Shown: positions 1 through 27,726 of the stretch, piece by piece | Layout of the letters: the number at the start of each line of letters is the position of its first letter | Numbering within the stretch: position 1 is the first letter of the stretch | Source of the DNA: Raillietiella orientalis | Lineage: Eukaryota | Direction of reading: 5' to 3' | Assembly: GCA_036172245.1 (NCBI GenBank) | Contig: JAYWIR010000187.1 | Span: 1-36,746 of the forward strand | DNA: 36,746 nt | Position numbers and translations under genes: made by a program | Notes under the pieces: model-generated | Told to the model about the DNA's origin: nothing | Seen by the model: only the letters and a program-made list of their open reading frames with translations | The model's database searches: none

Positions 1-38
1 CATCGACTCACTCGGGAGCGAAGGAAACACACGTCCAC
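1..38 (-). mobile_element. Piece A: extreme 5' end of an L1/Tx1-like element; the rest lies left of the window
   Basis: The reverse complement, GTGGACGTGTGTTTCCTTCGCTCCCGAGTGAGTCGA, is nearly identical to the 5' end of element M at 33511-33546. Confidence 0.8.
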
Positions 39-2800
39 TCGCCAAGGGATTCGGCGACGGGCTGAGGAACGACCGGGCATACTACCGCGCCCGTCTTTAC
101 TCTAGGACTCCCGACGTTCGACGCCTGACGTAGTATAAAGCTGGGGCTAAGCGACAGACCTGACAATCCGGGTCGGCCAGCTTGCTGGACGCCCAAGGCC
201 AGGAATGCTTAGCTCCGGCGAAAAGAAACGGCATCCTACGGGACAATTACTCCTCCTTGTACGCGCTTAGAACAACAGAGCGCGCCGTGGCGCAGCGCTT
301 TCTGCCGCAAGGCGCCCCAGCGCTACAGGAGGAGCAGACACATCAACTCGAGGAGCGTTTCTCGATGGCGGAGATCGTCTCCGCCATCGGCAAGCTCGAA
401 AAGAGAAAAGCACAAGGGGAAGACGTTCTGCCCGCGGAGTTCTACCAAGGCTTCGTGGAGGAGCTGGCCCCCCTGGTGCATCGGGTTTGCATGCTGATCC
501 GAGAACAAGGGAACGTCTTTAAATCGTTCCCGTCAGCTAGAGTACGTCTCCTGCCGAAAGGAGGAGACAATCGCAACGTAGGCAACTGCGTCTTATCACA
601 GTAGTGAATGCGGATGCGAAGTTGCTTGCCAAGCTTTGAGCTGAGCGACTGGGACGGGTGGCGGAATCCGTGGTGAGTCCGGAGCAGACATACGCTGTTC
701 CCGGACGAAGCATGGAGGCCAACCTGTTCCTCGCCAGTACATGGTGGCAGTTGCAAAAAAGCGAAGACCAGGGAGGTCAAGAGAATCCTGGAGTCTCTTC
801 TGACCAGGGATGGGACGCCCTTCATGGAAAAGCCGCCCCCGGTGCCCTTGCGATCGCAGTCGATCTGCGTAAAGCGTTCCATTGCGTCGACCAGGAACTG
901 CTTCTGGAGCTCCTGGAACGCTTGAGATTCCCGGCCGTCTTCCAGGCTTACCTGCGCTCCTGCTGGCGCTTCGCTCTAATAAACATCTCTTTCAGCGGCC
1001 GGCATGTGTACGGCGTGCCGGTTCGGCGTGGCATAAGGCAGGGTGACAGTCTGAGCCCCATGCTCTTCAGCATCTACTTCGAGCTGGTGCTGAGGGCATA
1101 CAGGGAGACTCTGGCAACCCTGCCAAGCTCGTGTCCCGGCACGCCTGCCGTGTCGGCCTACGCTGACGACCTTCTGCTCCTGCTCCCCGGGTATACCCCG
1201 GCGTCGACGCTCGAATATTTCTTTGAGTTGCTGCGTCGCGGGACGGGCCTCGAAGTAAACAGAGAGAAATCTTCCATCGTTCCAACATCACCACTACTTT
1301 TAAACAATACGGCGTGGGCCGGACGGCCGGACTGGATCCGCTTGGGGATCCCCACGGGCAGGTGCTTCAAGTACCTTGTCGTTCCGCTTGGGGACTTCTG
1401 CGTTGCAGAATCCTGGTCCGACAGTCTCCAAAAGGTGGAGTTGGCGATCGGCCCGTTCCGGAATGGCAAGTTTAACTTGCAGCAGCGGGCCGCGGTGTGT
1501 AACGCGTTCGCGGCATCCCTCCTTCGCCCCTTACTTTTTATTTGCATTGCCCCTCTCATCATACAGAGACAGACCAAAGCCCTCTTGAGGACCGCCCTTT
1601 GGGGTACAGCGTGGTCGCGAGTCCGATTGAAAGACTTGTGCGCTCTACGCAGGGATGGCGGCTTGGGCCTCCTTACGTTGGAGCGCATCCAACTACAAAC
1701 AACACTTCGAAAGTTAGCCCTTGCGGCTAGCTTATGGATGACGCCATGGTGCGTTCCGGCACGGCTCCTCGCCAGAAGAGCGACCGGTTGCGAAGGATTG
1801 TCCACGATTCTCGTGGCCTACCAGCGCAGCCTCTCCAGCTGTGACCCCGATTTGCGTCGAATGGTCGCCCAGATGAGGGGAAATACCTGGATCTCCTGCC
1901 TTCCCGCGAACTGCACTGCCTGGCTTCAGGAGTCAGCTTCCGCGTGGGCTAAGATCAACGGCACGAGCAAGGCGGAATACAACTGCCTACGACGAGGACC
2001 GTACGCCCGAACGCCGCTGCAGGATATTATCAGCACGCCCCGGAAGTTTCTGTGGGCTTCTTTCAGTCCCCTTGCCCCCGTTCTGTCCTCCCTAAAAAAC
2101 AATAGGAGCAGCAACGAGCGGGCATCGTGGGAAGTGTCCGGCCTCTTCCGATGCAGGAAAAAACCTTTAAAGGCGTGGACGACTCGAGAGCCCACGGACG
2201 CTGCCACCCCGAGCGTCCCGCCTCACGGACTTGAGCGCTGGGGAGAGCTGCTGTCAATACCTCCGGAGGAGGTGAAGTTGCCCCCAGCGTCTTGTTATTG
2301 CGACACACTCCCGTGGAAGTGGCAGGAGACGGCGTTGCTATTTCTGCACTGGAGACTGTTAAGCAGAGCACGCCTATCTCACTGGACACTGGGGAATGTG
2401 GATGCCCGCTGTGTCGAGTGCGGAGAAAGAGAAACCTTCCCTCATCTCACCCTCGAGTGTGTCGCGCTGGATGGACTCTGGAGTCGAATCTACCCAATCC
2501 TCCATCTTCCAGTAGGCGTCCCTAAGGAAATTTACCGTCGCCTCTTTCTGCGTCACGGCCTGCGCCCCGCTGCGTCTCTAGCAGTCTTCTGCTGCGTGCG
2601 CGGCATTGTGCAAAGGTGGCATGCCAGAAGAAGAGGCTTAAGATGCAGAAACGCCATCCACTGGACGACGATCTTTTTAGAGACGGCGACGAGGTGGCGT
2701 CTACCTTTCACAATAAAAACGGAACTTGACTGCATCCTTCACAGGATGCGGAGGACCGACCCAGGTGCCCAGTGATCCCTTCCGTGCCCCCCCCCTCTCC
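39..2800 (+). mobile_element. Piece B: L1/Tx1-like element, ORF2 from the post-APE linker to the C-terminus; 3' UTR truncated
   Basis: Starts at (L)AKGFGDG. Carries a Z-region (KAQGEDVLPAEFY), RT motifs and a C-terminal CVECGERETFPHLTLEC. The terminal hairpins seen in other copies are absent. Confidence 0.9.
182..2775 (+). pseudogene. Disrupted ORF2 (RT plus C-terminal CCHC zinc finger) of piece B
   Basis: ORFs 182-604 and 658-2775 contain EQTYAVPGR, VDLRKAF, GIRQGDSLSP, AYADD, FKYL and DGGLGL. There is a frameshift near 590 and stops near 131 and 637. Confidence 0.9.
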
Positions 2801-2864
2801 CCATATAACCGTTTTCACTGAGTGTCCGGCAATTTCACTCAAACCACGTTTCTTTCTCGCCCAG

Positions 2865-7700: not shown

Positions 7701-8159
7701 CTGGAAAGCGTCGGGTTCCGATGTTACGACCTCCTAGCTTTAATGACAGTGAGCATGCTCAAGCAGAGTGAAGTGCACTGGAATGATGCGGCCCTCTGTT
7801 CAGCGTCTGCTCCAAACCCCCTCGAAAATCAGGGATAAGCAATTCGTTTTCGGCTCTGGAACAGTCCCTTGTGGTCTAACTCTCAGTTACTTCGCCGGAA
7901 ATCGCCAACCACGATCCAATTGTAGCACTCGAGGTCCTCGACGTAGGCAGTCGCATTCCGCCTCGCTCGTCACTTTGATCTTATCCCAATCGGAGACTGA
8001 TTCCTGGAGTCCAGTCCGCAGAGATGCAGGAGATCCACGGATTGTCCCTCAACAGGGCAACCAAGTCCAGCAGCTGAAACCTACAATCGTTCAGGATACG
8101 GTCTTTGGCTAACAGGATTGAGGTCAATCCGAAACAGCCAGTAGACCTGTGACCGAGGA

Positions 8160-8720
8160 GTGGTCCCGCGTAAAGGAAGGGAGACTTTTACAACTTCCAC
8201 CAGGAATACAAGATGGCGGAGATTGTCTCCACCATGCCAACATTTAAAAAAAAAAAAGCACCAGCGGAAGACGGTCTACCAGCTGAATTCTATCAACACA
8301 TCGCGACAAAGCTGCTTCCCCTGGGGCACAAATTATGTATGCTAATGCGTGATCTGTCCAACTCGTTACGGTCAGCTAGAGTACGTCTCCTCACTGAGGG
8401 AGGAGACTTGCGCAACATTGGCAACGGGCGTTCCATCACTGTAGTGAATGCATACGCAAAGTTGCTCGCTCAACTCTGAACTGAGCGCCTGGGACGGGTA
8501 GCAGAATCTGCAGTTAGTCCGTAACAGACATACGCTGTTCCCGGAAGAACCATGAGGGCCAACCTGTTCCTCGCCAGCACCTTCCGTCAGATGTAACACC
8601 AAGAAGGTCAGATAGGTCGAGAGAGTCCTGGACTGTCCACTGGCCGGGAAAGGTAAGCCGGAGGGGAGTTGCGGCGCCTGGAGCCATCGCGGTTGCAGTC
8701 CATTTGCGCAAAGCTTTCGA
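8160..8720 (+). mobile_element. Piece C: highly degraded ORF2/RT fragment ending at the KAFD motif
   Basis: Translates as MAEIVS..KKKKAPAEDGLPAEFY..SARVRLL..ITVVNAYAKLLA, then TYAVPGRTM and VAVHLRKAFD, with many stops. Confidence 0.85.
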
Positions 8721-8785
8721 TTTTTAAACGGGTTTTCCCGGGGCATTTATTCAAAAAATAAAGTGCGCAAGTACTTCAGGAGTTA
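8721..8785 (-). mobile_element. Piece D: 3' terminus stub of an element
   Basis: The minus strand reads TTTATTTTTTGAATAAATGCCCCGGGAAAACCCGTTTAAAAA, matching the family 3' end (AATAAA, GC hairpin, A5). The right boundary is approximate. Confidence 0.75.
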
Positions 8786-8789
8786 CACC

Positions 8790-11700
8790 GCGAAGGAAAT
8801 TAGAGGAGGAGATGCGACTTGCTCTGCTTTAACCATGAAAGTAGGGGCATCCGCCCCCACGGAATCCGGGGCACTTGCTCCATTAAAATCGATGGCGACC
8901 GCCCCTTCGCGACCCTCTTCGCCAGCGGCGAAGAGTTGGAGTGCCGTCGTTGCTGCGCCATCCGCGGCTGCAGTAGCGGAGCAGACTGCCTACAAGGGCA
9001 GCAGCTACAAACCGTTGCTGATCTATAGGTAGGCAGTGTGTTGGACGAGAAAATTGCACGCTTCTTTGAAATGGAGCTGCAAAGACTGAATGTGAGGGAG
9101 CAAGACCTCGAGGGCCCATCCGTCCTTAGTAGGAGACAGCAAGTTGAGCTGACATGCAAAGAGGCAAGTCTTGTGCAGCGCCTGCTGAACAGTCCCATTA
9201 CGGTGAACGGTCGCAGGATCTTCCCTGTGACGGAGGACCGCTCCGTCGTGGTCCACCTCACGGGCGTAACACTACGAATGGAGAAAACCAGCGTCCATGA
9301 GGAGTTGTCAAAACATAGTACTGTGCACGCGTATTGGGCCAAACCCAATGTCTTCCGAACGTACGAAAGGCTATTCAGTGGAATGCCCGCAGCCCGCGTC
9401 AAACTACCAGAGAATGGTGGGCTTCCCCACAAACAAAATATCGGCGAAGAAAATGTCGATGCTTGGTACGTGGAAAAGCTCATGTATTGTGGCCATTGCC
9501 ATGCTACAGGGAGCTTAAAAAAACGGTGACCTCACATCCAATGCCACTTATGTGGTAATAAGAACCACATCCGCAAGGTGTGCTCCAAAAGGGAAATACT
9601 GTCACCTCCCGCTGCGAAAAAGGCAAAGGGGAAACGCACGGGAGAAGCGAATATCCTGGAACAGGCTGGGAAAAACCAGATGCCAGACCCTATGCCCTCC
9701 CAAGAAACCTCATTTAAGAGCATTCCCGACGAAGCTGGTGACAGCGAAGGCTGGCAGACGGTACAGCCACGAAGAAAACCCGGTAGTCCCAAACGAAACA
9801 CGGTGAAATCAAAAAGGCAGTGCGAAGAACCCTACCGCGAAAATCTCTGCGCATGATTGATGAAATTAGAGCGTGTGGAGGCAGTCGATGCCACCACCGG
9901 GAGAACGATTCCCCCCTCGCGTCCGGGAAAGCCGCGACGGTCAATGCCGAACCCTCTGGGGCTACAGAGAAGGAACCGCGCGCCGCGCTCGACGCGATCG
10001 AGGAGGCCGCCTTCTAGCAGGCGGTGGAAGAACTCGCGGCTGAACTGCAAGGCCGTGAGAGGAACTCGCGGAAAGATTTACGAAGGCCGGCCGCGAGGAA
10101 GGCTCCGGATGCAGATGAGGCCCATCCGGACTTCAGAAGTGCGTCTTCTTCAGCGGAGGCCCCACCAAATAAGACGGGACGTAATTCTTAGAACCCCAGG
10201 AGGCGCATCCGGATCCAGAAGGAGGTGGATGAACCGGGTTCCGAGTGGGAAGCCGGCAGCATGCGAGGCAAGGGTGGGAATCTCTTATTTCCCGACACCG
10301 TGCAGCTGGCGACCCCCATGGAATGGGAAGTTTGGATGGGTAAAGCCCCCTTCCTCTGCATGGCCCTGACGACGATTCGGCCTCCATGGAAGAGAAAGAA
10401 GCAATGCGCCACGCACCCCCTTTTCCATCCGTCCCTTTCGACCAGGTGGCGGGAACCGCACTGCCAAGTTCCCAGGAATAACCCCTGGGCTCGCCTGTCG
10501 CCGAAGGATCCGCGTGGCCTGTTGGAATGTCAACGGGCTGCGCGACGACGGCAACAGGCGAGATACAGCCGAAACCCTGCGAGAATTCGACATGGCGCTT
10601 CTGCAGGAGATCCACGTGATCACTGCAAGAGACGTCGAGGAGATCAAGAGGATCGCAGGAAGTCGGTTGTATTGGCAATGCGGCGACCGCCACACCTGCG
10701 GTGTCGCGTTCTTCCTGAAGCCAGCCGTCGACGCCCACGTGAGGAACGTACGCTTCGATGACAACGGTCGTGTTGGACAGATGATTCTATGCTGGCCTGA
10801 CACGATCGATCTCATCGTTACCAACGTGCATGCTCCAAGCGGCAGCAGAAAAGAACTCAGTTTTTCCAGTACCTGGAGCGTGACTGGCTGACGAATGCAG
10901 GAGTGCGCAAGGCCCACCTGATAGCCGGGGACTTTAACTTCCGCCTGCTCTCAGGTGCGTGCTGCACGCATAAGAACGTGCCAATCGAGTTGTGCTCTGC
11001 CATGAGCGCGCGCAAGTTGACGGAGGGACTTTCGGAAATGGAGAACAGCATCGACCACGTTTTCCTCGACCACGACATGTGTACTCATGTCGGTATACAA
11101 GGAAGGCTCCTGTCGACGCTGTCCGACCATTTCCGTCTGATGTTCGATGTCTGGCCACGCAATAAAGGACCTCCATCCAGGGCGTGGCGTCTACCGGGGG
11201 ATTGGACGAGACTCCCAAGTGCGGCGGAACAACTCCGCCAATTCCTGAGAGGCGTCACCGTCGAGGATTGGGACGTTTTCAAGCGTTCGGTCCGCGAGTT
11301 CTGTGAGGAGATTCCCCTAGGGCGCATACCCTCCGAGTTTGGGGAAGGAACTCGCAACCAAAGGGCTTATCTATACGCCCGTCGTTACGCGAGAACCCCC
11401 AACGTCCGTCGTCTGGCCGACTACCGAGCCGGGGCTGAGCGCCAAGCTTGGCAGTCCGGGCCGCCCACCCTGCTGGACGCCCAGGACCGCGAACACTCGG
11501 CCCCCTCAGCGACTCGACACATGCTGAGAAAATTTTATTTCTCCCTGTATGCCAGGCCGCCTCCCGAGCAGGACACCTCGCGACTGTTGCTCCCGGAAAA
11601 AGCCCCGGTCACAGGGGAGGAAGAGAAAGAAAGCCTCGACGTGCCTTTTACAGCCGGTGAAATCGTCACCGCGATAAAAGGGCTCAAGAGGAGGAAGACA

Positions 11701-12173
11701 CCAGGGGAAGACAGCCTGCCCGCGGAGTTTTTTCAAAGCTGCGCAGCAGAGTTAACCCCTTTGGTGCACACATTGACACAGCTGATCCGGGAAGAAGGCG
11801 ACGTTCCCGCCTCGTTCCGGTCAGCTAGGATGAGGCTCCTTCCTAAGGGAGGAGACCTCCGTAAGCTAACCAACTGGCGTCCGATCACTGTCGTGAATAC
11901 GGACGTCTAGTTGGTGGCGAAACTGTGGGCTGCGCGGCTCGGACAGGTAGCCGAATCCGCAATTAGTCCGGAGCAGACATACGCTGTTCCTGGGCGAAGT
12001 ATGGAGGCTAACCTGTTCTTCGCCAGCACATGGTTCCATGCGCAACAAGAAAATAAAGACCGCAAGGGATCTCTCGGCTACCCCAATATAAGGGTGACCT
12101 CTGGTCAGGGTAGGGACAACCAAACGGGTAAGATTGCCCTAGCGATCACAGTTGCTCTTCATAAAGCATTCGA
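8790..12173 (+). mobile_element. Piece E: element with degraded ORF1 and ORF2 (APE plus start of RT), cut off at KAFD
   Basis: ORF1: KSWSAVVAAP, CGHCHATGSLKKR, second knuckle near 9540. APE: WNVNG, LQE, GDFN, IDH, SDH. RT start: NWRPITVVN, KAFD. Confidence 0.9.
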
Positions 12174-14911
12174 TTTGCACCCGGATTTTGCCGAAGCGTT
12201 TATTGTAACAATAAACTTTAACAAAGACGTAAAGTGGCTGGATCATTGCTACAGCCACGCACGAAGAAACACAGAGCCTGCCAAATCACCGGTCCGCAGA
12301 CCCAAACGGTCCACAACGGCAGCAGGAGGAAGCTGGAAAAACAAAAACAAAACAAAAAAGAAAAGAAAAGGTGGGGAAGAACGGAAAGGGATAACTGTAG
12401 CTGGTGGGGTCGTTGCATCCTTTGCAGGATGCCGGCTAGCTCCTTGTGTAATGCTGGATCCAGGTGGTGCCATTTCGACGCTCTCCTCAGGAAATGGGAG
12501 GCTGGCAGGATAACACAATAGTCGCGTTGTCCTCCTGTAGCCTTGCTCCAGGCGGCGACGATCCCGCGAAGGCAGTGAAGGGCTGCTAACGAGGCTGATG
12601 GCCGAAGGGCGTAGGCAACGAAGAGGGCTTTCAGAGCGTCCCTGAGGTTGCCCCATGGGATGCCGATGGCCGCGGCAAAGCGGAACCAAAGGGGCCGGAG
12701 GGCAACACAATCCACTAGCAGGTGGGAAGGGACTCCCGTTCCCCACACCTGACGCAATTAAGGTCCACCGCTGCCCAGGTCCAGTATTGTCGGCGGGCGT
12801 TACAAGGACGTCCTCCGTGCTGAGACAAGAGAGCCGACTCCTGTTATTTTAAGAGGAGGGTGGAGGTGTTAATTAGTAACGGAAGCCACTTGAAACGTTC
12901 GATGGGAACGACGAACAGCGCGCCTCAGCGAAGAAGTCCATTGGAAGGCGTACTCGGGGTCGCAGCGTCTGTTAACTGGCCCGTCTTCCACTCTCCTATC
13001 TTCTTCTCCTTCCCGGAGATTGTTACTGTAACCTCCCACTTCGCCGCAACATCGCTGTCCAGATCTTCCATCAGGGAAGGCAGAGAAGCAGCGAAAGGGG
13101 TTCTTCCTGCGCACGCTCTCTTCTTTGGATCCTCCAGGATCTCGCGGAGCGTGCAACTTCTGTAACCCCCAAACAGGAACCTTCGTTCCTGTTATGAGCG
13201 TTGCATGCCGAACTGTCCCCACGTTCGAACTGTTTCCTGCAACCAGGCACTACCGTTTAAAGGGCGAAAGGAGACCAATCCTGGGTTTTTCCGGTAAAGC
13301 GCAGCCAACCTCCGTAGCTGAAGTCCGCATCGGTTGACGCGGCGACGGAGTGCAAGAAACGACGACAGTCCCGTATTGCAGGTGGCTTGCTGGAGAAGGA
13401 GACGTTCAGGGACGCACAAACAGGTGCACCACAACTCTGGAGCGAGTGCCGACAATCGGAACTGGAGCTGAAGCTCCAGCGGCTCCAGCGTCAGGAGGCC
13501 CAGACCACCGTAACGACGAGGAGCGCACAAGTCCTTTAAGCGGAATCGGGCCCTAACGTTGCCTTAAGAAGCGATACGAAGGAGGTACTGTGTCCGCTTT
13601 TAAAATCTCTCTGTGAAAGGGCAAACAAAAAGCGGGGGGCAAAGGAGAGGAGCCGCGAACGTGTTCCAAACCGCGGCCCGTTCAGAAAGGAAAAACCTGT
13701 TGTCTCCGAACGGGCCCATCGCCGTCTCTACTTTTTGGAGGCAGCCGGACCACGCTTTTGCAGGGGAGTAGTCCCCCAACGGCACACCAAAGTACTTAAA
13801 GTACCTCATTGTGGGGATCCCCAAACGGACCCAGTCCTGCTGCCCTGCCCGCGCCGCACTTACTGGCATCACGGACGACTTCGCCCTGTTCAACGTAAGT
13901 CCGCTTCCTCGATGCAGCAGGTCGAAGAAACCTCGACCACCGAAGCCAAGGTGGAAATAGGAAGCAGCAGCAGAAGGTCGTCCGCGTACGCTGTAACGGC
14001 CAGCGTACCGGCACAGTCGTGAGGCAGGTGCGCCAGAGTTCCCCTGTACGCTCTCAGTACCAACTCAAAGTAGGTGCTGAAGAGGAAGGGGCTCAGGCTG
14101 TCTCCCTGAGGGATCCCACGCCGCACGGGTACGCTGTGCACGGTCTGTTCGCTGAAAAAAACGTTGATAAGCGCGCCGCGTCAGCTGGAGCGCAGATAGG
14201 CCACTGATGAGGCCGGGAAGCCCAAGCGTTCCAAAAGCTCCAGCAGGAGATTCTGGTCGACGCTGTCGAATGCTTTACGCAAGTTGACAGCGACCGCAAG
14301 TGCTCCCTCCTCCATCCGACCATCCGTCGCATGACTGACGGACTCACCGGAATTCCCGGTGCGCATCAAGCTCCTTTATTGTTAAAGCTCTAGCCAGGTA
14401 GAAGCGTGGAAGAGTTTCGCCTCCATGCTTTGCCAGGAAACAGCATATGTCTGTTCCGGGCTGATGAAGATGTTGCCAACCCGTCCCAGACGCTTTGTCC
14501 AAACCTTAGCCAGCAACTGGACGTCCGATTCACTATTGTGATAAGACACCAGTAGTTCATGCTCCTCAGATCTCCTCCCTTAGGGAGGGGCCGCACCTTT
14601 GCCGAACGTAACAAGGCGGGAACGTCACCTGTCTCGCGCATCAGCAAGAGGAGTTGCTGTACCAGGGGGGTAAGCTCAGCCGCGAAAGTTCGGCAAAACT
14701 CCGCGGGCAGACCGTCCTCCCCTGGAGCCTTGCGCCTCTTGAGATTTTCGATGGCCGAGAGGATCTCGTCCATCGTGAAAGGCTCGTCGAAGGTCTTTCT
14801 TTCCTCCTCCCCGATAGCAGGAGCTCCTTCCGGAAGCAGGAGTCGAGAGACGTTCCTCTTTGGAGGTGCCCTGGCATACAGAAAGGAAGAGTATCTCCGC
14901 AGCAGGCCGCC

Positions 14912-15015
14912 GATTTGGGCGGGTGAAGAGTGCTTGTGGCCCTGATCGTCCAGCAAGCTGGCGGATATGGGTGCGTGAAGAGTGCTCCTGGCCCTGATTG
15001 TCCAGCAAGCTGGCC
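14912..15015. repeat. 52-bp imperfect tandem duplication within piece F
   Basis: 14912-14963 and 14964-15015 both read GATWTGGGYGSGTGAAGAGTGCT..TGGCCCTGATYGTCCAGCAAGCTGGC. The short repeat CCGATTTGG brackets the duplication. Confidence 0.85.
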
Positions 15016-15555
15016 GATTTGGAATGCCAGGCTTGCCTCTCGGCTCCCGCTTTGTATTCCGCCAGCCTGCGGATTTCGGGATGCGTTGCGGAACGACGGG
15101 CCTGCAGATTAGCTCGTTCGTTACGCACCCGGTCCCAAAATCCGTAGGTAGGTGGTGCAGAGAAAACTGGTCGCAGAACTCCTGGACCGACCGCTTCAAG
15201 CGGTCCCAATCCTGGAGTGTCCACAGCCTGAAGCTCCGTATGAACGTGCGGAGATGTTCCGCCGCGTTCGGGAGCTTCAGCTAGTCCCCTGGCAAACGCC
15301 ACGCTGAAGATGGGGGGCCCCTGTCGCGCGGATAGATTTCAATCACGATTGGTCGATGGTCGGACAACTCGCACAGCAACTTGCAGCGCCTGCCCACACG
15401 AGTTCACAGGTGCTCGTCAAGCAACAAGTGATCGATGTTGTCCTCCATCCCTGGTACACTGGCCAACAAATTACATGTGTGCACCGCCATGCACACCTCG
15501 TTGACCATCTCACGCTCGCGATTCTGCCCATCTGGTTTTAGGCGAACGTTGAAAT

Positions 15556-15761
15556 TTTCCACTTGGACATGCAGGGACGTTTTTTGACATAAACAAGCTG
15601 GAGAAAATTGTTCTCAGCTCTCGACTCTGAAAACATGCAGCGGAGATTCAATCTTGGCACGCAGGCCAGAAAAACGGAAGAACATGGACGACTGAGGGGA
15701 GTCCAAAAAAAAAAACAAAAAAAAAAAAAATTATGAATGGGAGGAGTGAGCCAGGGTTGAA
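15556..15761 (-). mobile_element. Piece G: 206-bp 3'-UTR-only insertion in the APE of piece F, with a 13-bp TSD
   Basis: Flanked by CGAACGTTGAAAT (15543-15555) and CGAACTTTGAAAT (15762-15774), with one mismatch. It has a T-tract and a degenerate terminus (AAAAAACGTCCCTGCATGTCCAAGT). Removing it restores GDF(N/K)VRL. Confidence 0.8.
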
Positions 15762-15891
15762 CGAACTTTGAAATCGCCTGCAACTAGATGGGCATTCCGC
15801 ACGCCTACTTCGGTCAGCCATTAGCGCCGGAGGGCAAGGAAAATCAGTTTCCTCGCCCTCCTGTTCATCAGGTCCGCGCCGGTCGTTCACA

Positions 15892-15928
15892 CCCGGATGT
15901 GCCGGGGCATTTATTTCTTAGAAATAAA
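15892..15928 (-). terminator. Element 3' terminus: TTTATT/AATAAA hairpin followed by a CCCGG-N5-CCGGG hairpin (representative copy)
   Basis: Equivalent motifs occur at 8729-8762, 12180-12216, 20269-20304, 27732-27764, 30572-30601 and 35783-35819. Terminator function is inferred. Confidence 0.7.
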
Positions 15929-16141
15929 ATAACAGAAAAAATGTCGCGTGGCGAACCCAAAGGTTCACCACTCCAAAACAGCTTGCTGGTTACCGGCTCC
16001 GTGCCGTAGAGGTCCTTCCGATGCGCGGGGATGGGAAATAAAGAAAAACAAAAAGAAACAAAAAGTTCAAATGTGGGGGGGACCAAATGTTGTAGGGGTG
16101 GGAGGGCGGGGAAGGGATCACGGTGCGCGTGGAGAGGTCCT

Positions 16142-19100
16142 CTAGATCCTATTCAGGATCCGCACAAGCTGAGTCCTTTCAGCGCCCAAGTGGCGCCACT
16201 TGCAGACACTTCGCGCGAAAACGCGAGTCCAGTGTAAGGCGTTGCCGGTTGGCTGACGCCTTCTTCTGATGGCGTTCCAAGCCGCCACTATTCCTCTGAT
16301 GCAGCAGAGGACTGCTACACTAGCGGGCGGGGACAAGGCGTCACTACAGAAGAGGCGCCTGAAAACGTCCTTTGGGCCGAATCCGCGCAAGTCCAGGATC
16401 GCCGCGAGACGATCCCATAAAGGGCGGATGGCACTGCACTCGATGAGAAGGTGGGGGAAGGTCTCTTTTTCCCCGCACCGGTCACAATAAGGATCCACAG
16501 CCCCCCGGGTTGTGTGATGAAGGCGTGCTTTGAATGGAAGTCCCCAGAAAACCACAAGCAACGCCACATCCTGCCATTTCAGGGGGAGGGATGCACTGTT
16601 CCAGGACGCTGGGGGCCACTTCATCTCCTCCGGAGATAGTCCGAGTAGCTCGCCCCAGCGTCGAATTCCGTTGGGCGGGACACTCGGCGTCGCAGCGTCA
16701 GCTGGCTGCCGAGATGTCCACGCCTTTATCGATTGTGTCCTGCCGCCTATAGTGCAGGACACGGTCCATTTCCCCTGCTCGCTACTGTCCCTGGCATTCA
16801 CAAGGAAGGGCAGCACTGGGGCGAGGGGGGTTATCAAGGCCCACAGAAGCTTGTCGTGGGACTGCACGATCTCCTGCAGCGTCCAGCGGGCGTGCCTTTT
16901 CAGGCAAGTGTTTTTTGTGCCCGCCGGAACGTGAAGCTTTTCCCAAGTGGAGACTGTCTCGTGCAACCAGGCGGAGTAGTTCCCTGGGAGGCAGGAGATC
17001 CAGGCGTTCTCCCGAACCGCAACAAAGATGCGTCGCAGCATAGAGCCACAGTATGGTCTTCTGCAGACGCGCGCAGACAGAAACGACAAAAGTCCGCCGA
17101 TTCCGCAGGCTCGTTGGGCCAGGAGGCGTACTGGAACGCACTAAGGCGTGTCCCACAATTCCGCCGCAAGGGCGAGAGTCCTAAACTGAAATTGTACTTC
17201 CATGCGCTCCAGCGTAAGTAAGCCAAGTCCACCGTCCTTACGTGGAGCGCACAAGTCTTTGAGCCTCACACGGGACCTCCCTTTGCCCCAAAGGACTGTC
17301 CTCAGGAGGCCCGCTGCTCGTTTTCGAATAAAATAAGGGGCGGGGCAAACAAAAAGTAGGGGGCGAAGGAGGGGAGCCGCAAACGCGTTCCACACCGCGG
17401 CCCGTTCCTGCAAGTAGAACATGCCTTCTTGGAACGGACCGATCGCCAACGCTGTTTTTTGGAGACGGTGGGACCAGGCTTCTGCTGCGCAGAAGTCCCC
17501 CAACGGTACGCCGAGGTACTTGAAGCACCTGCTTGTGGAAATCCTCAGGCGGATCCAGTCCGACCGTCCAGCCCACGCCGAACCGACGAAGACCATGGAC
17601 GACTTTGCCCTGTTCACCTCCAATCCCGTTCCGCGGCGCAGCAACTCGAAGAAGTCCTCGCGTGCACTCGCCGGGGTGGACCCGGGAAGCAGCAGCAGAA
17701 GATCGTCTGCATAGGCCGACACGGCAGGCGTGCCGGCACACGAGCTCGGCAGGGTTGCCAGAGTTACCCTGTATGCCCTCAGCACCAACTCGAAGTAGAT
17801 GCTGAAGAGCAAGAGGCTCAGGCTGTCACCCTGCCGGATGCCGCGGCGTACGGGCACGCCGTACACGTGCCGGCCGCTGAAACCGATATTGATTGACGCG
17901 TTGCGCCAGCAGGAGCGCAGGTAAGATTGAAGCACGGCAGGGAAACCCATGCGTTCCAGGAGCTCCAGAAGGAGATCCTGGTCGACGCAGTCGAATGCTT
18001 TGTGCAAATCGACCGCGACGGCAAAGGCTCCCGCCGAGTCCATCCCACCCTCTGCCCGATCTTCTTGGTCAGAGGGGGCGCGAGGCTCCCTTGACCGTCC
18101 TGTGCAACGCGTTGTCGCAACTGCCACCATGAGCTGGCGAGGAGCAGGTTGGCCTCCATGGTTCGTCCGGGAACAGCATAGGTCTGCTCGGGACTCACCA
18201 CGGAAGCGGCCACCCGCCCCAAACGCTCAGCCCACAACTTGGCATACAACTTTGCGTCCGCATTCACTACTGTGATGGGACGCCAGTTGCCAATGTTGCG
18301 TAAGTCTCCTGACTTCGGCAGGAGACGTACTTTAGCTGACCGGAACGAGGCGGTAACTTCGCCGTGTTCGCGGATCAGCGCACTTAACCTGAGCACCAGG
18401 GGGGCCAGCTCTGGCGCGAAGCGATGGTAAAACTCCGCGGGCAGGCCGTCCTCCCCTGGTGCCTTCCTTCTCTTGAGCCTGTTGATGGCGGAGATGATCT
18501 CCGCCATCGTGAACGGTTCCGCCAATCTGGAACGGTCCTCCTCCTTGAGCGCGGGAGTGCCATCCGGCAGCAGGCGCTGCGCAAAATGGCGCTCAGGTGT
18601 TAGTGGCGCGTACAAGGAGGAATAAAACTCCCGCACGATGCGGCTTACCTGGGCTGGGCTGGAGCGTTCTTGGCCCTGATGATCCAGCAGGCAGGCCGAG
18701 CCTGACTGCCAGGCCTGCCTCTCCGCCTCAGCCTTGAATTCAGCCAGGCGACGGACGTCGGGACGCCGGGAATAACGGCGCGCCTGGAGGTACGCCCGCT
18801 CGTTCCTGACACCCTCACCGAAGCCCGGCGGAAGACGTTCCAGCGGAAACTGGTCGCAAAACTCACGGACTGAGCACTTCATTTCGTCCCAGTCCGCGAG
18901 CGTCTGAAGCTGGAATCCTCGCAGGAAACAGCGTAGATGTTCCGCCGCTCCTGCGAGGCGCAACCAATCCCCTGGCAGGCGCCATGTTTTCAGGGGAGGG
19001 CCCTTATTGCGCGGATGTAACTCGAGCACGAGCCGTGGATGGTCGGACAGCTCTGCCGGGAGCGTTCCACGAGTTCCCACCCGCGTGCACAGGTGGTTGT

Positions 19101-19710
19101 CGAGGAACATGTGGTCGATGTTCCGATCTCTCCCGGCATCGCCGGCCAACAAGTTGCGCGCATGCACGGCTGCGCACATCTCGTTGACCAGCTGTGCTCG
19201 TCCGCTGGGCGCACCTGCCAGCAGGCGGAGATTGAAATCGCCCGCAATGAGGTGCGCCCTTCGCACGCCTGCTTCGGCCAACCAGTCTCGCCGCAAGGTT
19301 TCGAAGAACGCAGTGCGTTCCTCGGCCCTGTGGCTGCTCACCGGAGCGTTCAGGTTCGTGACCACGAGGTCGATCGAGTCGGACCACTTGAACACAAGCT
19401 GCCCAACTCGACCATCCCCGTCGAACCGTGCACTGCGCAGTGAGTTGTCGACGGTTGGCTTTAGCAGAAAGGCCACTCCGCAGGAGTTGTCCGTTCCGTT
19501 CCTCCACAGTAGCCGCCCTCCCGCGATTCTTTCGATTTCCTGGACATCTCCCGGTCGGAGAACGTGCGTCTCTTGCAGGAGCACCAGGTCGAAATCTCGC
19601 AGTATGGCGGCTACATCTCGCCTCTTTCCGTCGTCGCGCAACCCGTTGACATTCCAACAGGTGATGCGCAAGCGGCGGCAGAAGGCGAGCCCACGCACTG
19701 ATGCGTTTAT
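16142..19710 (-). pseudogene. ORF2 (APE-RT-CCHC) of element H, with two frameshifts
   Basis: ORFs 17818-19698, 17141-18130 and 16142-17089 tile the protein. Motifs: WNVNG, GDFN, SDH, KAFD, QGDSLS, YADD, CDRCGEKETFPHLLIEC. Confidence 0.92.
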
Positions 19711-20262
19711 TGTGGGGTGGAGGCGGCCTCCTCCCGTGCGGGAGGCGGCTTGTTGGCGGCCGTGACGACGGTCGGCTGCTCACACGGGAGCACGTCGTCC
19801 ACAGCGACTTCCATGGGGCTGGCTTCCGAGACACGGATCGGAGAAGGCTCGCGTGACGCGACGCACATTGCCTCCTCCTCCGTGCCCGAGGACATGGCCT
19901 CCTCCACCTGCGGAGGGGCGACCCGTCTCGGGCAACCGGTCTTCTTGCCAGCCTTCCTCTTCGGCACGGCTGCGGAAGTAGAACAACCGGCTTCGGTTTC
20001 GGACTCGGAATTTTCCGGGCCCTTCACCGTTGCCGGTCGTCTCAAGGCCTTCTTCTCGGCCTTGGCAGGCTGCTGTAACATGGCTGCCAGCTCTTCCGCG
20101 GCCTGCGCGAAGGTCGCGTCCGTTATGCGCGCCGCCTCCTCGCTTTCCGCACCGACGCTTTGCGCAGGCGCGACAGGGGCGGCTTCATCGATCGGCGCGC
20201 AGACGTCCTTCGCTGGCAATGCCGGAACGGCATTGTCGTCAGCTGATGGTGACGTCACTGCG
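19707..20262 (-). pseudogene. C-terminal part of ORF1 of element H
   Basis: After removing I and one TSD copy, it continues in frame from the N-terminal part (..PEPVVPAVT|SPSADDN..). It contains FAQAAEELAA, as the other ORF1s do. Confidence 0.9.
20253..20262. repeat. Left target-site duplication of element I (CGTCACTGCG)
   Basis: The identical 10-mer lies at 25907-25916. This copy directly abuts T5, the element's A5 tail. Confidence 0.95.
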
Positions 20263-20510
20263 TTTTTACCCGGATATGCCGGGGCATTTATTTAAAAAAA
20301 TAAAAATACATGTAATTTTCGGGTGAAGAACCTGATGGTTCAGCACAAAGCAGCTTGCTTCTTGCCGGTTCTAAACCGGCGAGGTCCTTCCAACGCGCGG
20401 GAACGGGAAGAAAAAAACAAAACAAAGAAAAAAATGTAAAAGTTGGAGGGAGTACTTATGTTTGGGAAGGGAGGGCGGGAAGGGAATCACATTGCACGCT
20501 TAAAGGTCCT

Positions 20511-23500
20511 CTAGATCCTGTTCAGGATCTTCACAAGCTGCGTCCGTTGTGCACCCAGGTGTCTCCACCTGCAAATGTTTCTCACAAAAAGGCGAGTCCA
20601 GTGTACAGCATTGCCGCAAGGTTGGCGCCTTCTTCTTGTCGCGTTCCAAGCCGACACGATCCCTCTAATGCAGCAAAGAACTGCCACAGAAGCGGGAGGG
20701 GACAAGGCATCACGCAAGAAGAGTCGCCTAAAAACATCTTTAGGGCCGCCTCCGCGAATGTCCAGGATTGCTGCAAGACGATCCCAGAGAGGGCGGAGAG
20801 CAATGCACTCAATAAGGAGGTGAAGGAATGTCTCTTTTTCCCCGCACCGGTCGCACTGGGAATCCACAGCCCCCCGAGTGGAGTGAGAGAGGCGTGCCTT
20901 GAAGGGTAAACCCCAATGTATCACGAGCAGCGCCACCTCCTGCCATTTCAGGGGGAGAGAGTCACTATTCCAAGACGCTGGGGGCCACTTCATCTACTCC
21001 GGAGATAGTCCGAGTAGCTCTCCCCAGCGTCGGATTCCGTTGGGCGGGACACTCGGCGTCGCAGCGTCCGCTAGCTGCCGAGATGTCCACGCCTTAATCT
21101 TTTGTGTCCTACTTTTGATGGTGCAGGATACGGTCCATTTCCCCTGCTCCCTGTTGTCTCTAGCGTTTTGTAGGAAGGGCAGCACAGGAGCAAGCGGGGT
21201 TATCAGGGCCCACAGAAGCTGATCGTGGGACTGCACGATCTCCTGTAGCGTCCAGCGGGCGTGCCTTTTCAGGCAAGTGTTTTTTGTGCCCGCCGGAACG
21301 TGAAGCTTTTCCCAAGTGGAGACTGTCTCGTGCAACCATGCCGAGTAGTTCCCTGAGACGCAGGAGATCCAGGTGTTCTTCCGAACCACAACGGCCATGC
21401 GCCGCAGATGAAAGCCGAAGTGTGCTTGTCTGCGGTCGCGCGCCCAGAGAAACGAAGAAAGTCCGCTATATCCTGAGGCTCGCTGGGCCAGAAGTCGTGC
21501 TGGACCGCACCAAGGCGTGTCCCACAATTCCGCCGCAAGGGCGAGAGTCCTAAACTGAAATTGTACTTCCATGCGCTCCAGCGTAAGTAGGCCAAGTCCA
21601 CCGTCTTTACGTGGAGCGCACAAGTCTTTAAGACGCACACGGGACCTCCCTTTGCCCCAAAGGACTGTCCGTAGGAGGCCCGCTGCTCTTTTCCTGACGA
21701 AATAAGAAGCGGGGCACACAAAAAGTAAAGGGCGTAGAAGGGGGGCCGCAAACGCGTTCCACACTGCGGCCCGTTCCTGCAAGTAAAACTTGCCTTCGTG
21801 AAACGCACCGATCGCCAACGATGCCTTTTGTAGACGGTCGGACCAGGCTTCTGTCACGCAGAATTCCCCCACCGGAACACCAAGGTACTTAAAGCACCTG
21901 CCCGTGGGGATCCCCAAGCGGATCCAGTCCGACCGTCCAGCCCACGCCGAGCCGGTACAAGTTATGGACGACTTCGCCCTGTTCACCTCCAGGCCCGTCC
22001 CGCGGCGCAGCAACTCGAAGAAGTCCTCGAGTGCACTCGCCGGGGTGGACCCGGGAAGCAGCAGCAGAAGATCGTCTGCATAGGCCGACACAGCAGGCGT
22101 GCCGGGACACGAGCTTGGCAGGGTTGCCAGAGTTACCCTGTATGCCCTCAGCACCAACTCAATGTAGATGCTGAAGAGCAAGGGGCTCAGGCTGTCACCC
22201 TGCCGGATGCCGCGGCGCACTGGCACGCCATACACGTGCCGGCCGCTGAAAACAATGTTAATCAACGCGTTGCGCCAGCAGGAGCGCAGGTAGGACTGGA
22301 GCACGGACGGGAATCCCATTCGTTCCAGGAGCTCCAGAAGGAGATCCTGGTCGACGCAGTCGAATGCTTTGCGCAAGTCGACAGCGACGGCGAAGGCTCC
22401 CGCCGATTCCGCCCCACCCTCTACCGGGTCTCTCTGGTCATAGGGGTTCTCGAGGCTCCCTTGACCGTCCTGTGCAAAGCGCTGTTGCAACTGCCACCAT
22501 GTGCTGGCGAGGAGCAGGTTGGCTTCCATGGTTCGCCCGGGAACAGCCTATGTTTGCTCCGGGCTGATCACGGAATCCGCCACCGGTCCTAAACGCTCAG
22601 CCCACAATTTGGCATACAACTTTGCGTCCGCATTTACCACTGTGATGGGACGCCAGTTGCTAATGTTGCGTAGGTCTCCTGACTTCGGCAGGAGACGTAC
22701 TTTTGCTGATCGGAACGAGGCGGGAACTTCGCCGTGTTCGCGGATCAGCGTACTTAGCTTGAGCACCAGGGGAGCCAGCTCTGTCGCGAAGTGTTTGTAA
22801 AACTCCGCGGGCAGGATGTCCTCCCCTGGTGCCTTTCTTGTCTTTAATTTACTGATGGCGGAGACAATCTCTGCCACCGTAAATGGTTCCGACAACCTGG
22901 AACAAACTTCCTCCCCGATCGTGGGAGCCCCATCCGGCAGCAACTGCTGCGCGAATTGGCACTCGGGTGTTAATGGCGCGTATAAGGAGGAATAAAACTC
23001 CCGCACGATGCGGCTTACCTGAGCTGGGCTGGAGCGTTCTTGGCCCTGATGGTCCAGCAAGCAGGCCGAGCCTGACTGCCAGGCCTGCCTCTCCGCCTCA
23101 GCTTTGAATTCCGCCAGGCGACGAACGTCGGGTCGTCTGGAATACCGGCGGGCCTGAAGGTAGGCTCGCTCGTTCCTGACACCTTCTCCGAAGCCCGGAG
23201 GAAGACGCTCCAGGGGAAACTGTTCGCAAAACTCGCGGACTGAGTACTTCATTTCGTCCCAGTCCGCGAGCGTCTGAAGATGTAATTCTCGCAGGAAGGC
23301 GCGCAGATGTTCCGCCGCTCCTGCGAGGCGCAACCAGTCCCCTGGCAGGCGCCACGTTTTCAGGGGAGGACCCTTGTTGCGCGGATGTAGGTCGAGCACG
23401 AGCCGTGGATGGTCGGACAGCTCTGCCGGGAGCGTTCCACGAGTTCCCACCCGCGTGCACAGGTGGTTGTCGAGGAACATGTGATCGATGTTCCGATCTC

Positions 23501-24080
23501 TCCCGGTATCACCGGCCAACAAGATGCGCGCATTCATTGCTGCGCACAACTCGTTGACCAGCTGTGCTCGTCTGTTGGGTGCACCTGCTAGCAGGCGGAG
23601 ATTGAAATCGCCCGCAATGAGGTGCGCCTTCCGTACGCCTGCTTTAGCCAGCCAGTCTCGCCGCAGGGATTCGAGGAACGCAGTACGTTCCTCGGCCCCG
23701 TGGTTGCTCACTGGCGCGTATATGTTCGTCACAACGAGGTCGATCGATTCGGACCACTTGAGAACAAGTTGTCCAACTCGACCGTCCCCGTCGAAGCGAA
23801 CGCTACGCAGAGAGTTTTCGACTGCCGGCTTCAGCAGAAAGGCCACTCCGCAGGAGTAGTCTGTTCCGTTCCTCCACAGTAGCCGCCCTCCTGTGATTCT
23901 TTCGAAATCCTGGCCTGCTTCTGTTGTGAGCACGTGAGTCTCTTGCAGTAGGGCCAGGTCGAAGTTTCGCAGAATGGCGGCTACGTCTCGCCTGTTCCCG
24001 TCGCTGCTCAACCCGTTGACGTTCCAACAGGTTATTCGCAAGCGGCTAGAGGAGGCGAGTCCACGCAATGGTGTTGTTAT
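20511..24080 (-). pseudogene. ORF2 (APE-RT-CCHC, about 1189 codons) of element I, with two nonsense codons
   Basis: ORFs 22548-24068, 20994-22529 and 20511-20993 share one frame, separated by TAG at 22548-22550 and 20994-20996. Confidence 0.93.
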
Positions 24081-25822
24081 GGTGGGGTGGAAGAAACCGC
24101 CTCCTGTTCAGAAGACGGGTGGTCCGGGTCCATGTCGTTGGAGTGTTCAGGGGCATCGCTCACTCCGTCGGCCGTGGACTGTGCTAACAGTTGGTAAAGG
24201 ATGCTCTCAGGCACGGAGTCGCATTGTGCAACGCACATGGACTCTTCCTCGCTGTCAGATGCCATTTCAACCTCTTCCTGAGAGGTGACAGCACGCCTAC
24301 GAGCACCTGTTGCATTTTTATGTTTTCTTTTCGGCAAGCCAACGGAGGGCGAGTTCCCGCTTTCGGCGTCAGACTCGGAGGTTTCCGGGTCTTTTGCCGT
24401 AGCCGGGCGTCGAACGGCCTTCTTCTCGGCCTTGACGGGCTGCCTCAGGAAGGCAGCCAACTCTTCCGCGGCTTGCGCGAAGTTTGCATCAGAGATGCGT
24501 TCCCCGTCATCACGGATTTCGCCGCCTGTTGGCGAGTCGGGTGACGTAACAACCGATTCGATAGCGGCAACTGGCGCGCTATCGTTCGGAACCGCAGCGG
24601 CTGAGCTTTCGCTCGCCGCTACAACGCTTCCAGTGGACTGGACTGGAACAATAGATTCGATCGCGGCAACGTGTGCCGCGCTTTCGATCGCGACCGTAGC
24701 GATTTCGCCGCACGAAGGCGGAACCGCTTTATCGATCGACGCCGCGGGTGCGGTATCGATCGATGGCTTGCTGGTGGAAGCCTTCGCGGGAACGCGATCG
24801 ATGTGCACGGTGGAACGGCGGACGGTTTTTGCCACCATTTTCACCGTTTTCTTGGGGGCCTTACCTTTCCCTTTGCTTTCCTTCTTTTTCACCAACTGCC
24901 AACTGTTTTCGGCGACAGTTTCGCCTTCCTCCGGTTTTTGTTCCACTGGCGTCGATATCTCGCCTGTCTGGGAGGTTTCACTCGATTGGGGATCCTGTTT
25001 GTCCGGTTCCTGTGGCGACTCTGTTCTCTTGTTGCCAACAGGAGTGGAAGCAAAACGAAGAGGGCACACCTTTCTTACGTGGCCCTTGTTACCGCAGCGT
25101 AGACACACGATGTTGGGGCACCTCCGTTTAACTTGCCCTGTAGTCTCGCAGTTTCCGCAAAATTTGGGTTTCCCTATGTACCACAGATCAATGTATTCTT
25201 CATCGACCTGAAGTCGGTGGGGTAAACCACTATCCTCGCGGACTGTCACACGCGCGGCGGCATAGCCACTGAACGCCCTAGTATAGCCCAGGGTGTTCGG
25301 CTTAGCCCACAGAGCGTGGACGGTCCCGTACTTTTCCAGTTCCTGCCTAACGGCATTTTTCGCCATTCGCATCGTCAACCCGGTCAGGTGGATGACGATC
25401 GATTTGTCGGCAGTAAACGGGAAGATCCTTCTCCCGTTCACGGTCACCGGGCATCTCAGCAACTACTGAGTCATTCCTGCAGTTTTGCAGTTCAGCTCCA
25501 CTAGCTGACCGCCACTGCGAACGGAAAGGCCGAGAACTTCTTCTTCCGGCACTTTCAGTTTTTTAAATTCCGCGGCAAACGTTCTCAACATCGCGGGAGA
25601 ATAAAGCCCACCTACCTTATACAGTAGGGCCGGGTTATATCCGTGGGACTCATAGGCCCGCTGTTCCTCGCATGGTGGCGGCGCGGGAGCCGCCACCACC
25701 GCACTCCAAGACCTCGCCGGGGCGGGGGACGAATCTGTGGGGGAGATGGCCCCCACATCCATGGGCTGAGGGGACAAGGCACGCCCGTCCCCCTTTTCCG
25801 CATTGGCGGTGTCCTCAGGCAT
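24077..25822 (-). pseudogene. ORF1 (gag-like, two CCHC knuckles, low-complexity C-terminus) of element I, with one nonsense codon
   Basis: ATG at 25822 (MPEDTA), in-frame TAG at 25463-25465, knuckles CGNCETTGQVKRRC and CLRCGNKGHVRKVC. Confidence 0.9.
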
Positions 25823-25906
25823 TTCTGCCTTCAAAACACCGCCCAAACACCACACAACCTACAACCTCGCGCTAAAACGCAGGAGCAGCAAAAGAAACAC
25901 GTCTGC

Positions 25907-27028: not shown

Positions 27029-27138
27029 CCCTGCCCAGGAACAACCGCTCAACCCTGAAAACTCCGAAAACACTGGCGAGAAAAACGCGGAGCACCACAA
27101 AAGCACGTCCACCCTCTCAGGAGCGCCGTCGCAAGTCC

Positions 27139-27726
27139 CGGCCAGCTGATTCTCAGGTGGTCCGATACGATCGATTTCTTCGTAACAAATCTGTAAGCTC
27201 CGAGCGGTACTAGCAGGTACCCGGAACGTAAGGCGTTCCTAGAAACCCTGAAGCGCGACTGATTGGTGGAAGCGAACGTGCTCATGGCTCACCTGATAGC
27301 GGAAGACCACAGTTTCCGCAAGCTATCAGGTGAGCCACTCGCACAGGAACGGGCGGCTAACGAGTTGTGCGTCGCCATGCGCACGCGCAACTTGTTAGGG
27401 GATCTCCCGCAAATGGTCAGCAGCATCTAACACGTCTTCCTGGACGTCGACCTGTGATCACGGGTCGGCAAACGGGGCAAAGTTGCGTCGGCACTGTCTG
27501 ACCATTTATGGTTGATATTCTAGGTGTAACCACGCGACAAGGACCCCCTATTTAGCGCGTGCCGTCTGCCTGCGCACTGGACGCGGCTCAGGTGCAAAGG
27601 AACCCCCTTGCGTATTCCTGAGAGGCGTCACCCTCCGCAATCTGAAGGATTGCAACCTATTTAAGGCCTCGGTCCGCGAGTTTTCCGAGGAGTTCCGCTT
27701 GCACCGCTCGCCCCGGGGATTTGGGG
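27139..27726 (+). mobile_element. Piece J: degraded APE fragment ending at HRSPRGFG
   Basis: Translates as GQLILRWSDTID..HLIA..HVFLD..LSDH..LRGVTLRNL..SVREFSEEFRLHRSPRGFG, with several stops. Confidence 0.85.

Follow-up and report, generated by a model that had tools for sequence, protein, structure and literature searches.

Head-to-head joints in a self-nesting pile of L1/Tx1-like LINEs from Raillietiella orientalis, possibly formed by 5' inversion at sequence-determined break points

Several families of long interspersed nuclear elements (LINEs) are target-specific. Tx1L in Tx1D transposons, the U2, tRNA, and 5S families, and R1Bm have an apurinic-type (APE-type) endonuclease with a preferred nick site, which is used repeatedly, and their copies are stacked. 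Nested insertion that targets existing copies is described for the Zepp and Zepp-like (ZeppL) L1 clusters of the green algae Coccomyxa, Chlorella, and Chlamydomonas, and these arrays are rich in 5'-truncated copies and 3' ends (PMC8226300, PMC3446292). A further source gives approximately 30% of recent human and chimpanzee L1 insertions as 5'-inverted, with microhomology at the joints (PMC2912911). The window considered here is a stretch of 36,746 nucleotides from Raillietiella orientalis (assembly GCA_036172245.1, contig JAYWIR010000187.1, positions 1 to 36,746 of the forward strand). It is a self-nesting pile of L1/Tx1-like LINEs that encode an ORF1 protein with a CCHC knuckle, an APE-type endonuclease, and a reverse transcriptase (RT). 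Two head-to-head joints recur in it at the same base of ORF2. Our tentative interpretation, which we rank above antisense insertion at a preferred site, is that one of them, at 33510/33511, is the inversion joint of a single 5'-inverted (twin-primed) insertion, located at a possibly sequence-determined fragile place in the pile. All the statistics given below come from this single window and from small counts.

At 38/39 and at 33510/33511, base 1 of a LINE (GTGGACGTG..) abuts a relative on the opposite strand. Both joints were confirmed as real and as located where they were first described, in an earlier note made from the letters alone, which had reported near-identical 5' ends joined head-to-head to an ORF2 at the same base. 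The 28-nt 5' end GTGGACGTGTNTTTCCTTCGCTCCCGAG has exactly two occurrences, at 38..11 on the minus strand and at 33511..33538 on the plus strand (0/100 shuffles), and the two incoming ends, A and M, are identical at 35/36 bases. The flanks TCGCCAAGGGATTCGG (39-54, plus strand) and TCGCCCAGGGATTCGG (33510-33495, minus strand) are the only perfect matches to their motif in the window; when up to three mismatches were allowed, the motif was not enriched in the window (12 found vs 8.85 expected). In the two host copies, B and L, the sequence starts at one and the same base of ORF2, which lies two codons ahead of GFG and just past the endonuclease domain; four other copies (E, F, G, and H) cross the joint site unbroken. 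The fragment J also crosses it and ends shortly beyond, at ..GGGGATTTGGGG, where the minus-strand 3' end of K starts at 27727; the antisense joint of K to J that had been placed near 27726 is thus borne out, with J ending at 27726. The pieces at these joints are the following.

1..38, minus strand: A, the first 38 nt (start of the 5' untranslated region, UTR) of a LINE, with base 1 at 38 and the remainder outside the window.
39..55, plus strand: the shared stretch TCGCCAAGGGATTCGGC, 17 nt with the 'LAKGFG' codons, 16/17 identical to L.
39..2793, plus strand: B, a 5'-truncated LINE running from just past the endonuclease domain, through the RT, to the end of ORF2.
27113..27726, plus strand: J, an old endonuclease-domain fragment that crosses the joint site and ends 17-19 nt beyond it.
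27727..30569, minus strand: K, whose decayed 3' end (+ATAA) abuts J.
30570..33510, minus strand: L, from just past the endonuclease domain to the 3' terminus (..GGCATATCCGGGTG), starting at the same base as B.
33511..35781, plus strand: M, bases 1 to ~2271 of a LINE (2271 nt), with 5' UTR, ORF1, and an open endonuclease frame.
35782..36746, minus strand: N, the 3' part of a copy, whose exact 3' terminus AATAAACGTCCCGGTGCACCCGGGT (35806-35782) abuts M.

In B, a 711-amino-acid frame is open at 640-2775, and a 3' terminus of B was not found in the window. K is 5'-truncated approximately 96 nt past the joint site, at the 3' end of L. In the ORF1 of M (33830-33845), approximately 119 residues that are present in E, H, and I are missing, and the frame changes there.

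The sequences at the joints are element ends in the strict sense. All pieces were mapped onto H, the most intact copy, which is flanked by a perfect 10-bp target duplication, CGCAGTGACG (25916-25907 and 20262-20253); H begins GCAGACGTGT and finishes ..AATAAATGCCCCGGCATATCCGGGT followed by AAAAA. Directly after the target duplication, H starts at the base homologous to the joint start (GCAGACGTG, 25906), and the copy I starts with GTGGACGTGC at 27112. From the starts of H and I it follows that the element begins with GTGGACGTG at 38 and at 33511, in accordance with what the earlier note had supposed. At the opposite end, the 3' motif AATAAA-N4-CCGG-N5-CCGGGT has seven matches in the window, against 0.09 expected. 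Five of the seven are real termini, at 8727, 15891, 20268, 30571, and 35782 on the minus strand, and the other two are three-mismatch matches inside G and H. The element 3' ends consist of AATAAA, a short GC stem-loop (CCGG-N5-CCGGG), and T(G), and then have either no A tail or 3-5 A. These features resemble a 3' end formed by a stem-loop more than one with a long poly(A); the fold was no better than those of shuffles.

The relationship between the two host copies does not change at the joint. Window positions 3-55 and 33546-33494 are identical at 51/53 bases (96%), and the 40-nt bins that follow are 60, 60, 72, and 60% identical. The near-identity had been described as ending at the joint, and this needs correction: it extends 17 nt past the joint, and the break in B/L relatedness is at +17, not at the joint itself. 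A blastn alignment passes through both joints (3-1686 vs 33546-31880, 67.7%). B and L are 67.7% identical, with a dS of 1.22, a dN of 0.41, and a dN/dS of approximately 0.33. They are thus different lineages that have diverged under selection, and the joints are therefore not a plain segmental duplication, in agreement with the earlier note. The composite as a propagating subfamily was also considered and discarded, since the identity of B to L (67.7%) does not exceed that of B to G or H (71-73%).

Our preferred interpretation is based on the anatomy of M and L. The two lie on opposite strands. M contains bases 1 to approximately 2271, and the sequence of L extends from the joint site as far as the 3' end. 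This leaves a gap of approximately 60 nt, and M, which does not reach the joint position, meets the exact 3' terminus of N. To our knowledge, no LINE copy produced by target-primed reverse transcription (TPRT) lacks its 3' end, with the exception of the inverted arm of a twin-primed copy. Since M is an arm that reaches from base 1 to an internal position and is joined head-to-head with the rest of an element across a small gap, M and L together have the signature of twin priming. M had previously been taken for a whole insert, which does not hold, because its 2271 nt include nothing past the endonuclease domain and finish at the 3' terminus of N. The earlier note had also allowed that L and M might be one twin-primed copy, with A and B a descendant of the same rearrangement; the first half of this agrees with the 5'-inverted anatomy of M+L. 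In an independent DNA run (X1), one contig connects 33501 with 35774 on opposite strands, the arrangement expected of an unbroken M/L-type element. N is no less decayed than M (three lesions in 0.73 kb of N; none in the 0.8-kb endonuclease frame of M, plus two in its ORF1), and the reading in which N is nested in M requires N to be younger. M and L are also equally distant from E, with dS values of 0.63 and 0.72. Similar pairs are formed by E (bases ~60 to the KAFD codons) with Q (the last 50 nt), and by P with a decayed minus-strand piece at 7929-8184. The N/M joint has a possible overlap of ACC, and the inversion joint one of C.

According to this model, new copies would be made by TPRT into or beside older copies. 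A first cDNA would extend from the 3' end of the RNA to the post-endonuclease 'GFG' region, giving L. A second cDNA, for which the older neighbour N would have supplied its free 3' end as primer, would start on the same RNA approximately 60 nt upstream of where the first stopped and continue to base 1 of the RNA, giving M, and the two cDNA ends would then be joined head-to-head, at a position that microhomology may have fixed. The 38/39 joint would be the outcome of a second such sequence-directed joining, or else a copy of the joint that continues from +17 in lineage B. The region 17-19 bp past the joint, which contains a rare ATTCGR hexamer, would be a fragile place, at which the resident J was presumably nicked and used as a primer by the antisense K.

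Several observations weigh against this interpretation. A equals M at 35/36 bases, while B and L are only 67.7% identical, with a dS of 1.22; M and I, whose lineages are approximately 67% alike in ORF2, have only 19/36 of their first bases in common (manual count), so A can hardly derive from the RNA of B itself. Two independent inversions at the same base need a hot spot, and the only overlap that is certain is 1 nt (C). The J/K break is at a distance of 17-19 bp, which is what a staggered cut would give. One head-to-head pair does not fit: J and F, located on either side of the split element I/G, are only 61% alike. Around M+L, whose flanks are the 3' end of N and the truncated 5' end of K, no target duplication is distinguishable from the shared ..CCGGGT end. 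M also has fewer lesions than L (two in 2.27 kb including ORF1 vs five in 2.2 kb), although this difference is not significant (p = 0.2). Inversion leaves both the discordance between A/M and B/L and the identical joint base unexplained. As a clock, lesion counts were significant only for K vs J, and CpG decay and the GC of M vs L were uninformative.

Two further features of the joints were observed. On the minus strand at 33128-33673, the ORF2 frame of L continues through the joint, open for 55 codons, into sequence antisense to the 5' UTR of M, with an in-frame ATG 27 codons before the joint. The same frame in A/B is open for the 13 visible codons and stops soon after in B. The open frame across the joint is probably due to chance. 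A third head-to-head joint is found at 27112/27113, where base 1 of I abuts J, which is truncated within the endonuclease domain. On its other side, I/G is flanked by F, whose truncation falls at almost the same point of the element as that of J, yet the two are only 61% alike. No target duplication above shuffles was found around I/G, and the 55 nt beside the 3' end of G were ruled out by comparison as the upstream part of J.

The broken and unbroken copies differ in sequence at the joint site. All three of the broken copies (B, L, and J) carry TCGCC..GGGATT, and none of the four unbroken copies (E, F, G, and H) does (Fisher p ~0.03, hand calculation). A second recurrent junction is found at 8715-8730 and 12168-12185, where P and E, which belong to different lineages, are both broken after TTCGA in the 'KAFD' codons of the RT. 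Next to this break is the complement of a short A tail and an antisense 3' end, that of F in the case of E and that of Q in the case of P. Both recurrent breaks are located 1-2 nt after an ATTCGR hexamer, which has only 14 occurrences on the 28,216 nt of sense strand in nine pieces. Independent joints at the same target base are thus represented by the 5' joints in B and L and by E and P at the second site, and the break points appear to be set by the local sequence. No insertion at either site shows both of its edges within the window. An RNA hairpin that would stall the RT at 17-19 nt was also considered; a small stem appeared in the alignment, and six single folds gave z values of -0.75 to +1.1, no better than shuffles. 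The remaining pieces of the pile are as follows.

8133..8720, plus strand: P, an old ORF2 fragment broken after TTCGA (KAFD codons) and followed by the complement of the A5 tail and 3' end of Q.
8721..8772, minus strand: Q, the 3'-terminal ~50 nt of a copy, AATAAATGCCCCGGGAAAACCCGTT + TAAAAA.
8787..12173, plus strand: E, a 5' UTR remnant, ORF1, the endonuclease, and the start of the RT; unbroken across the joint site and broken after TTCGA at the same base as P.
12174..15834, minus strand: F, whose 3' end abuts E; unbroken across the joint site and containing a short nested copy.
~15562-15760, minus strand: the short copy nested in F, ~190 nt, in sense to F and heavily 5'-truncated.
15891..20262, minus strand: G, the 3' part of element I/G, which is split by H.
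20263..25906, minus strand: H, a full-length copy of ~5.64 kb with an A5 tail, inserted in sense in the ORF1 of I/G.
25917..27112, minus strand: I, the 5' part of I/G, with base 1 at 27112, head-to-head with J.

At L/K, G/F, N/M, F/E, Q/P, and K/J, one copy directly adjoins the exact 3' end of another. Half of the tabulated 3' joints to relatives (4/8) are at ATT(C/T)G-type sites, and the other four are at unrelated sequences. H, the short copy in F, L next to K, and I/G are located at unrelated sequences, in the sense orientation. Over the window, insertions occur at other sites and in both orientations, and the family is therefore not strictly site-specific. The short copy in F consists of a T-rich piece of 3' UTR, a decayed 3' end, and a short A tail, and is flanked by the target duplication ATTTCAA[A/C]GTTCG, which matches at 13/14 positions.

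The alternative that survives best, and which we consider possible if doubtful, is that the endonuclease of the A/M-type lineage prefers a site on the sense strand of its relatives' ORF2, nicks it after ..GGATTCGGC, and thereby directs antisense insertion. A second nick 17 bp upstream would then produce the head-to-head joint at base 1, M would be a whole insert in L that was later struck by N, and the same process would operate at the second site, after ATTCGA in the KAFD codons. The putative sites, with the cut marked by a slash, are TCGCCMAGGGATTCGGC/R and GCATTCGA/CTGCG. The presence of the same 5' joint in hosts of different lineages, with near-identical incoming ends, is what this alternative predicts, and it accommodates the similarity of B to L at 16/17 positions inside the shared stretch and approximately 60% beyond it. 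The split of the motif TCGCC..GGGATT between broken (3/3) and unbroken (0/4) copies also favours it, as do the position of both recurrent breaks 1-2 nt past the rare ATTCGR and the breakage of both E and P after TTCGA by antisense 3' ends. Furthermore, J is more decayed than K (seven lesions in 0.62 kb vs eight in 2.1 kb, p = 0.036), and the 3' end of K interrupts J at +17 to +19. J would therefore be the resident, and K would have been primed from a nick in the sense strand of J at +17 to +19. The 10- and 14-bp target duplications of two clean insertions make one of 17 bp plausible; however, a 17-bp duplication was never seen, and no insertion has both edges in one host. The target-site duplication of 16-19 bp proposed in the earlier note is therefore an inference, not an observation.

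The anatomy of M and the other insertions in the pile argue against a preferred site. If N had inserted at random in the 3.2 kb of visible M, the stop of M approximately 60 nt before its own site would be a coincidence of ~5% (hand calculation), and N does not look younger than M. The whole window can be parsed as one deep, one-sided nest (Q inside P, E inside Q, and likewise through to N), but this requires E to be older than F, J, and K, and E is the least decayed in ORF2 (1.2 lesions per kb, vs 3.6 in F, 11.3 in J, and 3.8 in K). The other insertions, at unrelated sequences and in sense, indicate a specificity that is loose at best, and the motif with up to three mismatches was not enriched in the window. 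A more explicit form of this idea, which we regard as rather unlikely, is that a LINE lineage homes into its relatives' ORF2: it would nick at ATTCGGC/ past GFG and at ATTCGA/ in KAFD and enter antisense between the endonuclease and the RT, disabling the host, with the 17-bp target carried or regenerated at the 5' edge. The interpretation in the earlier note, that one lineage targets a conserved site in its kin and so builds nests, is partly supported. The nest, the different lineages, the relative ages of J and K, and the motif split agree with it, whereas the anatomy of M and the insertions elsewhere do not.

It is improbable, in our estimation, that the joints go back to a single ancestral rearrangement that was duplicated (segmentally or in tandem) within the array, with one copy patched from +17 by gene conversion or break repair from a relative of the B lineage. 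The 53-bp joint block, 96% identical and followed by sequence only ~60% identical, has the form expected of such a patch, and the blastn alignment passes through both joints. Duplication does appear to occur here: K and L (27773-30565 vs 30623-33410) are arranged in tandem on the minus strand, are 76% identical, and have a dN/dS of 0.67, and their appearance is that of a tandem duplication at the DNA level, or of two old insertions, rather than of lineages maintained separately by selection. On the other hand, a lineage switch within 17 nt of the joint in approximately 2.9 kb of homology would be expected at random in <1% of cases (hand calculation), unless the break site itself started the repair. 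The dN/dS of ~0.33 between B and L also means that B proper is no neutral descendant of L, and only 36 nt of A are visible for comparison.

That the joints are assembly artefacts, chimeric joins between copies in a repetitive array, is very improbable: the window does begin only 38 nt before one joint, and the region consists wholly of diverged repeats, but the joints are in otherwise different sequence (~60-68% identity) rather than one collapsed repeat, fold-back reads would give identical arms whereas the arms here are different parts of the element, and contigs of the independent run X1 cover 33426-33634, although a single contig bridging the joint is not evident.

Taken together, a mixed history is likely, in which residents were nicked at a few preferred sites and reused as primers, and some of the incoming copies were inverted, aided by homology between the target and the RNA.

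The assignment of the pieces is supported by the protein domains. Positions 1-2793 and 8133-36746 consist of approximately 15 pieces of one L1/Tx1-like LINE group on both strands, and a self-comparison of the window gave 45 repeat pairs, nearly all with 65-76% identity. In the long frames, Pfam searches detected Exo_endo_phos (50-59 bits) in H, G, and M and RVT_1 (54-70 bits) in B, H, and L; the ORF1 zinc knuckle zf-CCHC scored 24.1 bits (cut-off 20.8), and zf-RVT remained below its cut-off (22.5 vs 27.5 bits). ORF2 therefore contains an apurinic-type endonuclease followed by an RT, the order that defines an APE-type non-LTR retrotransposon. The ORF2 of H is interrupted by one in-frame stop. 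Many copies are 5'-truncated, and target duplications were found at the two clean nested insertions. The GC content of the LINE copies is 55-62%, and CpG depletion was found in no copy (observed/expected 0.80-1.10). In the region at 2810-8130, the GC content is lower (~51%) and the only LINE traces are faint ones on the minus strand. The open frames of 3094-6965 contained no Pfam family, and an exon edge is possible at a GGTAAGT-like site near 3088.

Outside this window, close relatives were scarce. The 25-nt 5' UTR pattern had no matches in metagenome contigs or in genome contigs, and the 36-nt joint pattern had none in viral contigs. A protein-profile scan of metagenome contigs gave five loci with only 30-42% identity, which were not used. 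A word-index protein search found one relative, P0001, with 67% identity over the RT side, and an exhaustive HMMER search with the joint-spanning frame gave three matches with E values up to 0.001, among which only P0001 was close; it starts approximately 49 residues past the joint. The protein atlas contained only generic RVT_1/zf-RVT clusters. This LINE family is thus almost absent from the public protein collections. X1 was the one DNA run listed as sharing sequence with the window, with 7% of the words, and no RNA run was listed; the aligned pieces of X1 were mostly from distant relatives (209/315 pieces <90% alike).

The significance of the locus depends on which reading is correct. If 5' inversion is true, the window offers a well-resolved case, from a poorly sampled organism, of 5' inversion and of stacked copies within a self-nesting LINE cluster, which has annotation value and is not new in kind. 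A limited literature search found no published LINE aimed at a defined site in its relatives' ORF2. If the A/M-type lineage does prefer such a site, it would be the first LINE with a demonstrated aim at a defined coding site of its own relatives, with a bearing on the origin of Zepp-like, possibly centromeric, clusters and on direct competition between transposon lineages. If it homes there, the joints would represent targeted disruption between retrotransposon lineages, which would explain the growth of the nest. In either case, the two recurrent breaks beside the rare ATTCGR provide a concrete candidate sequence for the endonuclease.

These features can be compared with those of known systems. 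Like the target-specific LINEs of the Tx1 and R1 types, the elements here have an APE-type endonuclease, reuse of the same site, and stacked copies; unlike in those LINEs, the target would be the family's own ORF2, entered antisense, and the specificity is loose (4/8 of the 3' joints). The M+L unit resembles 5'-inverted human L1 copies in having the same two opposite arms, with the upstream arm inverted, a small gap, and short complementarity at the joints (PMC2912911). It differs from them in that it is located between other copies rather than in unique DNA with a readable target duplication, in that its inverted arm reaches base 1, and in that its joint base is found again beside a partner from a different lineage, something not expected of twin priming on a single RNA. 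The nearest known system would appear to be the Zepp and Zepp-like clusters. The portions of those reports used here describe neither a preferred ORF2 break site nor head-to-head joints (PMC8226300, PMC3446292). In the architecture on which the comparison is based, Zepp forms the same kind of local self-nesting cluster of L1-type LINEs, and its GC content is alike, at 61% compared with 55-62% in the LINE copies of R. orientalis.

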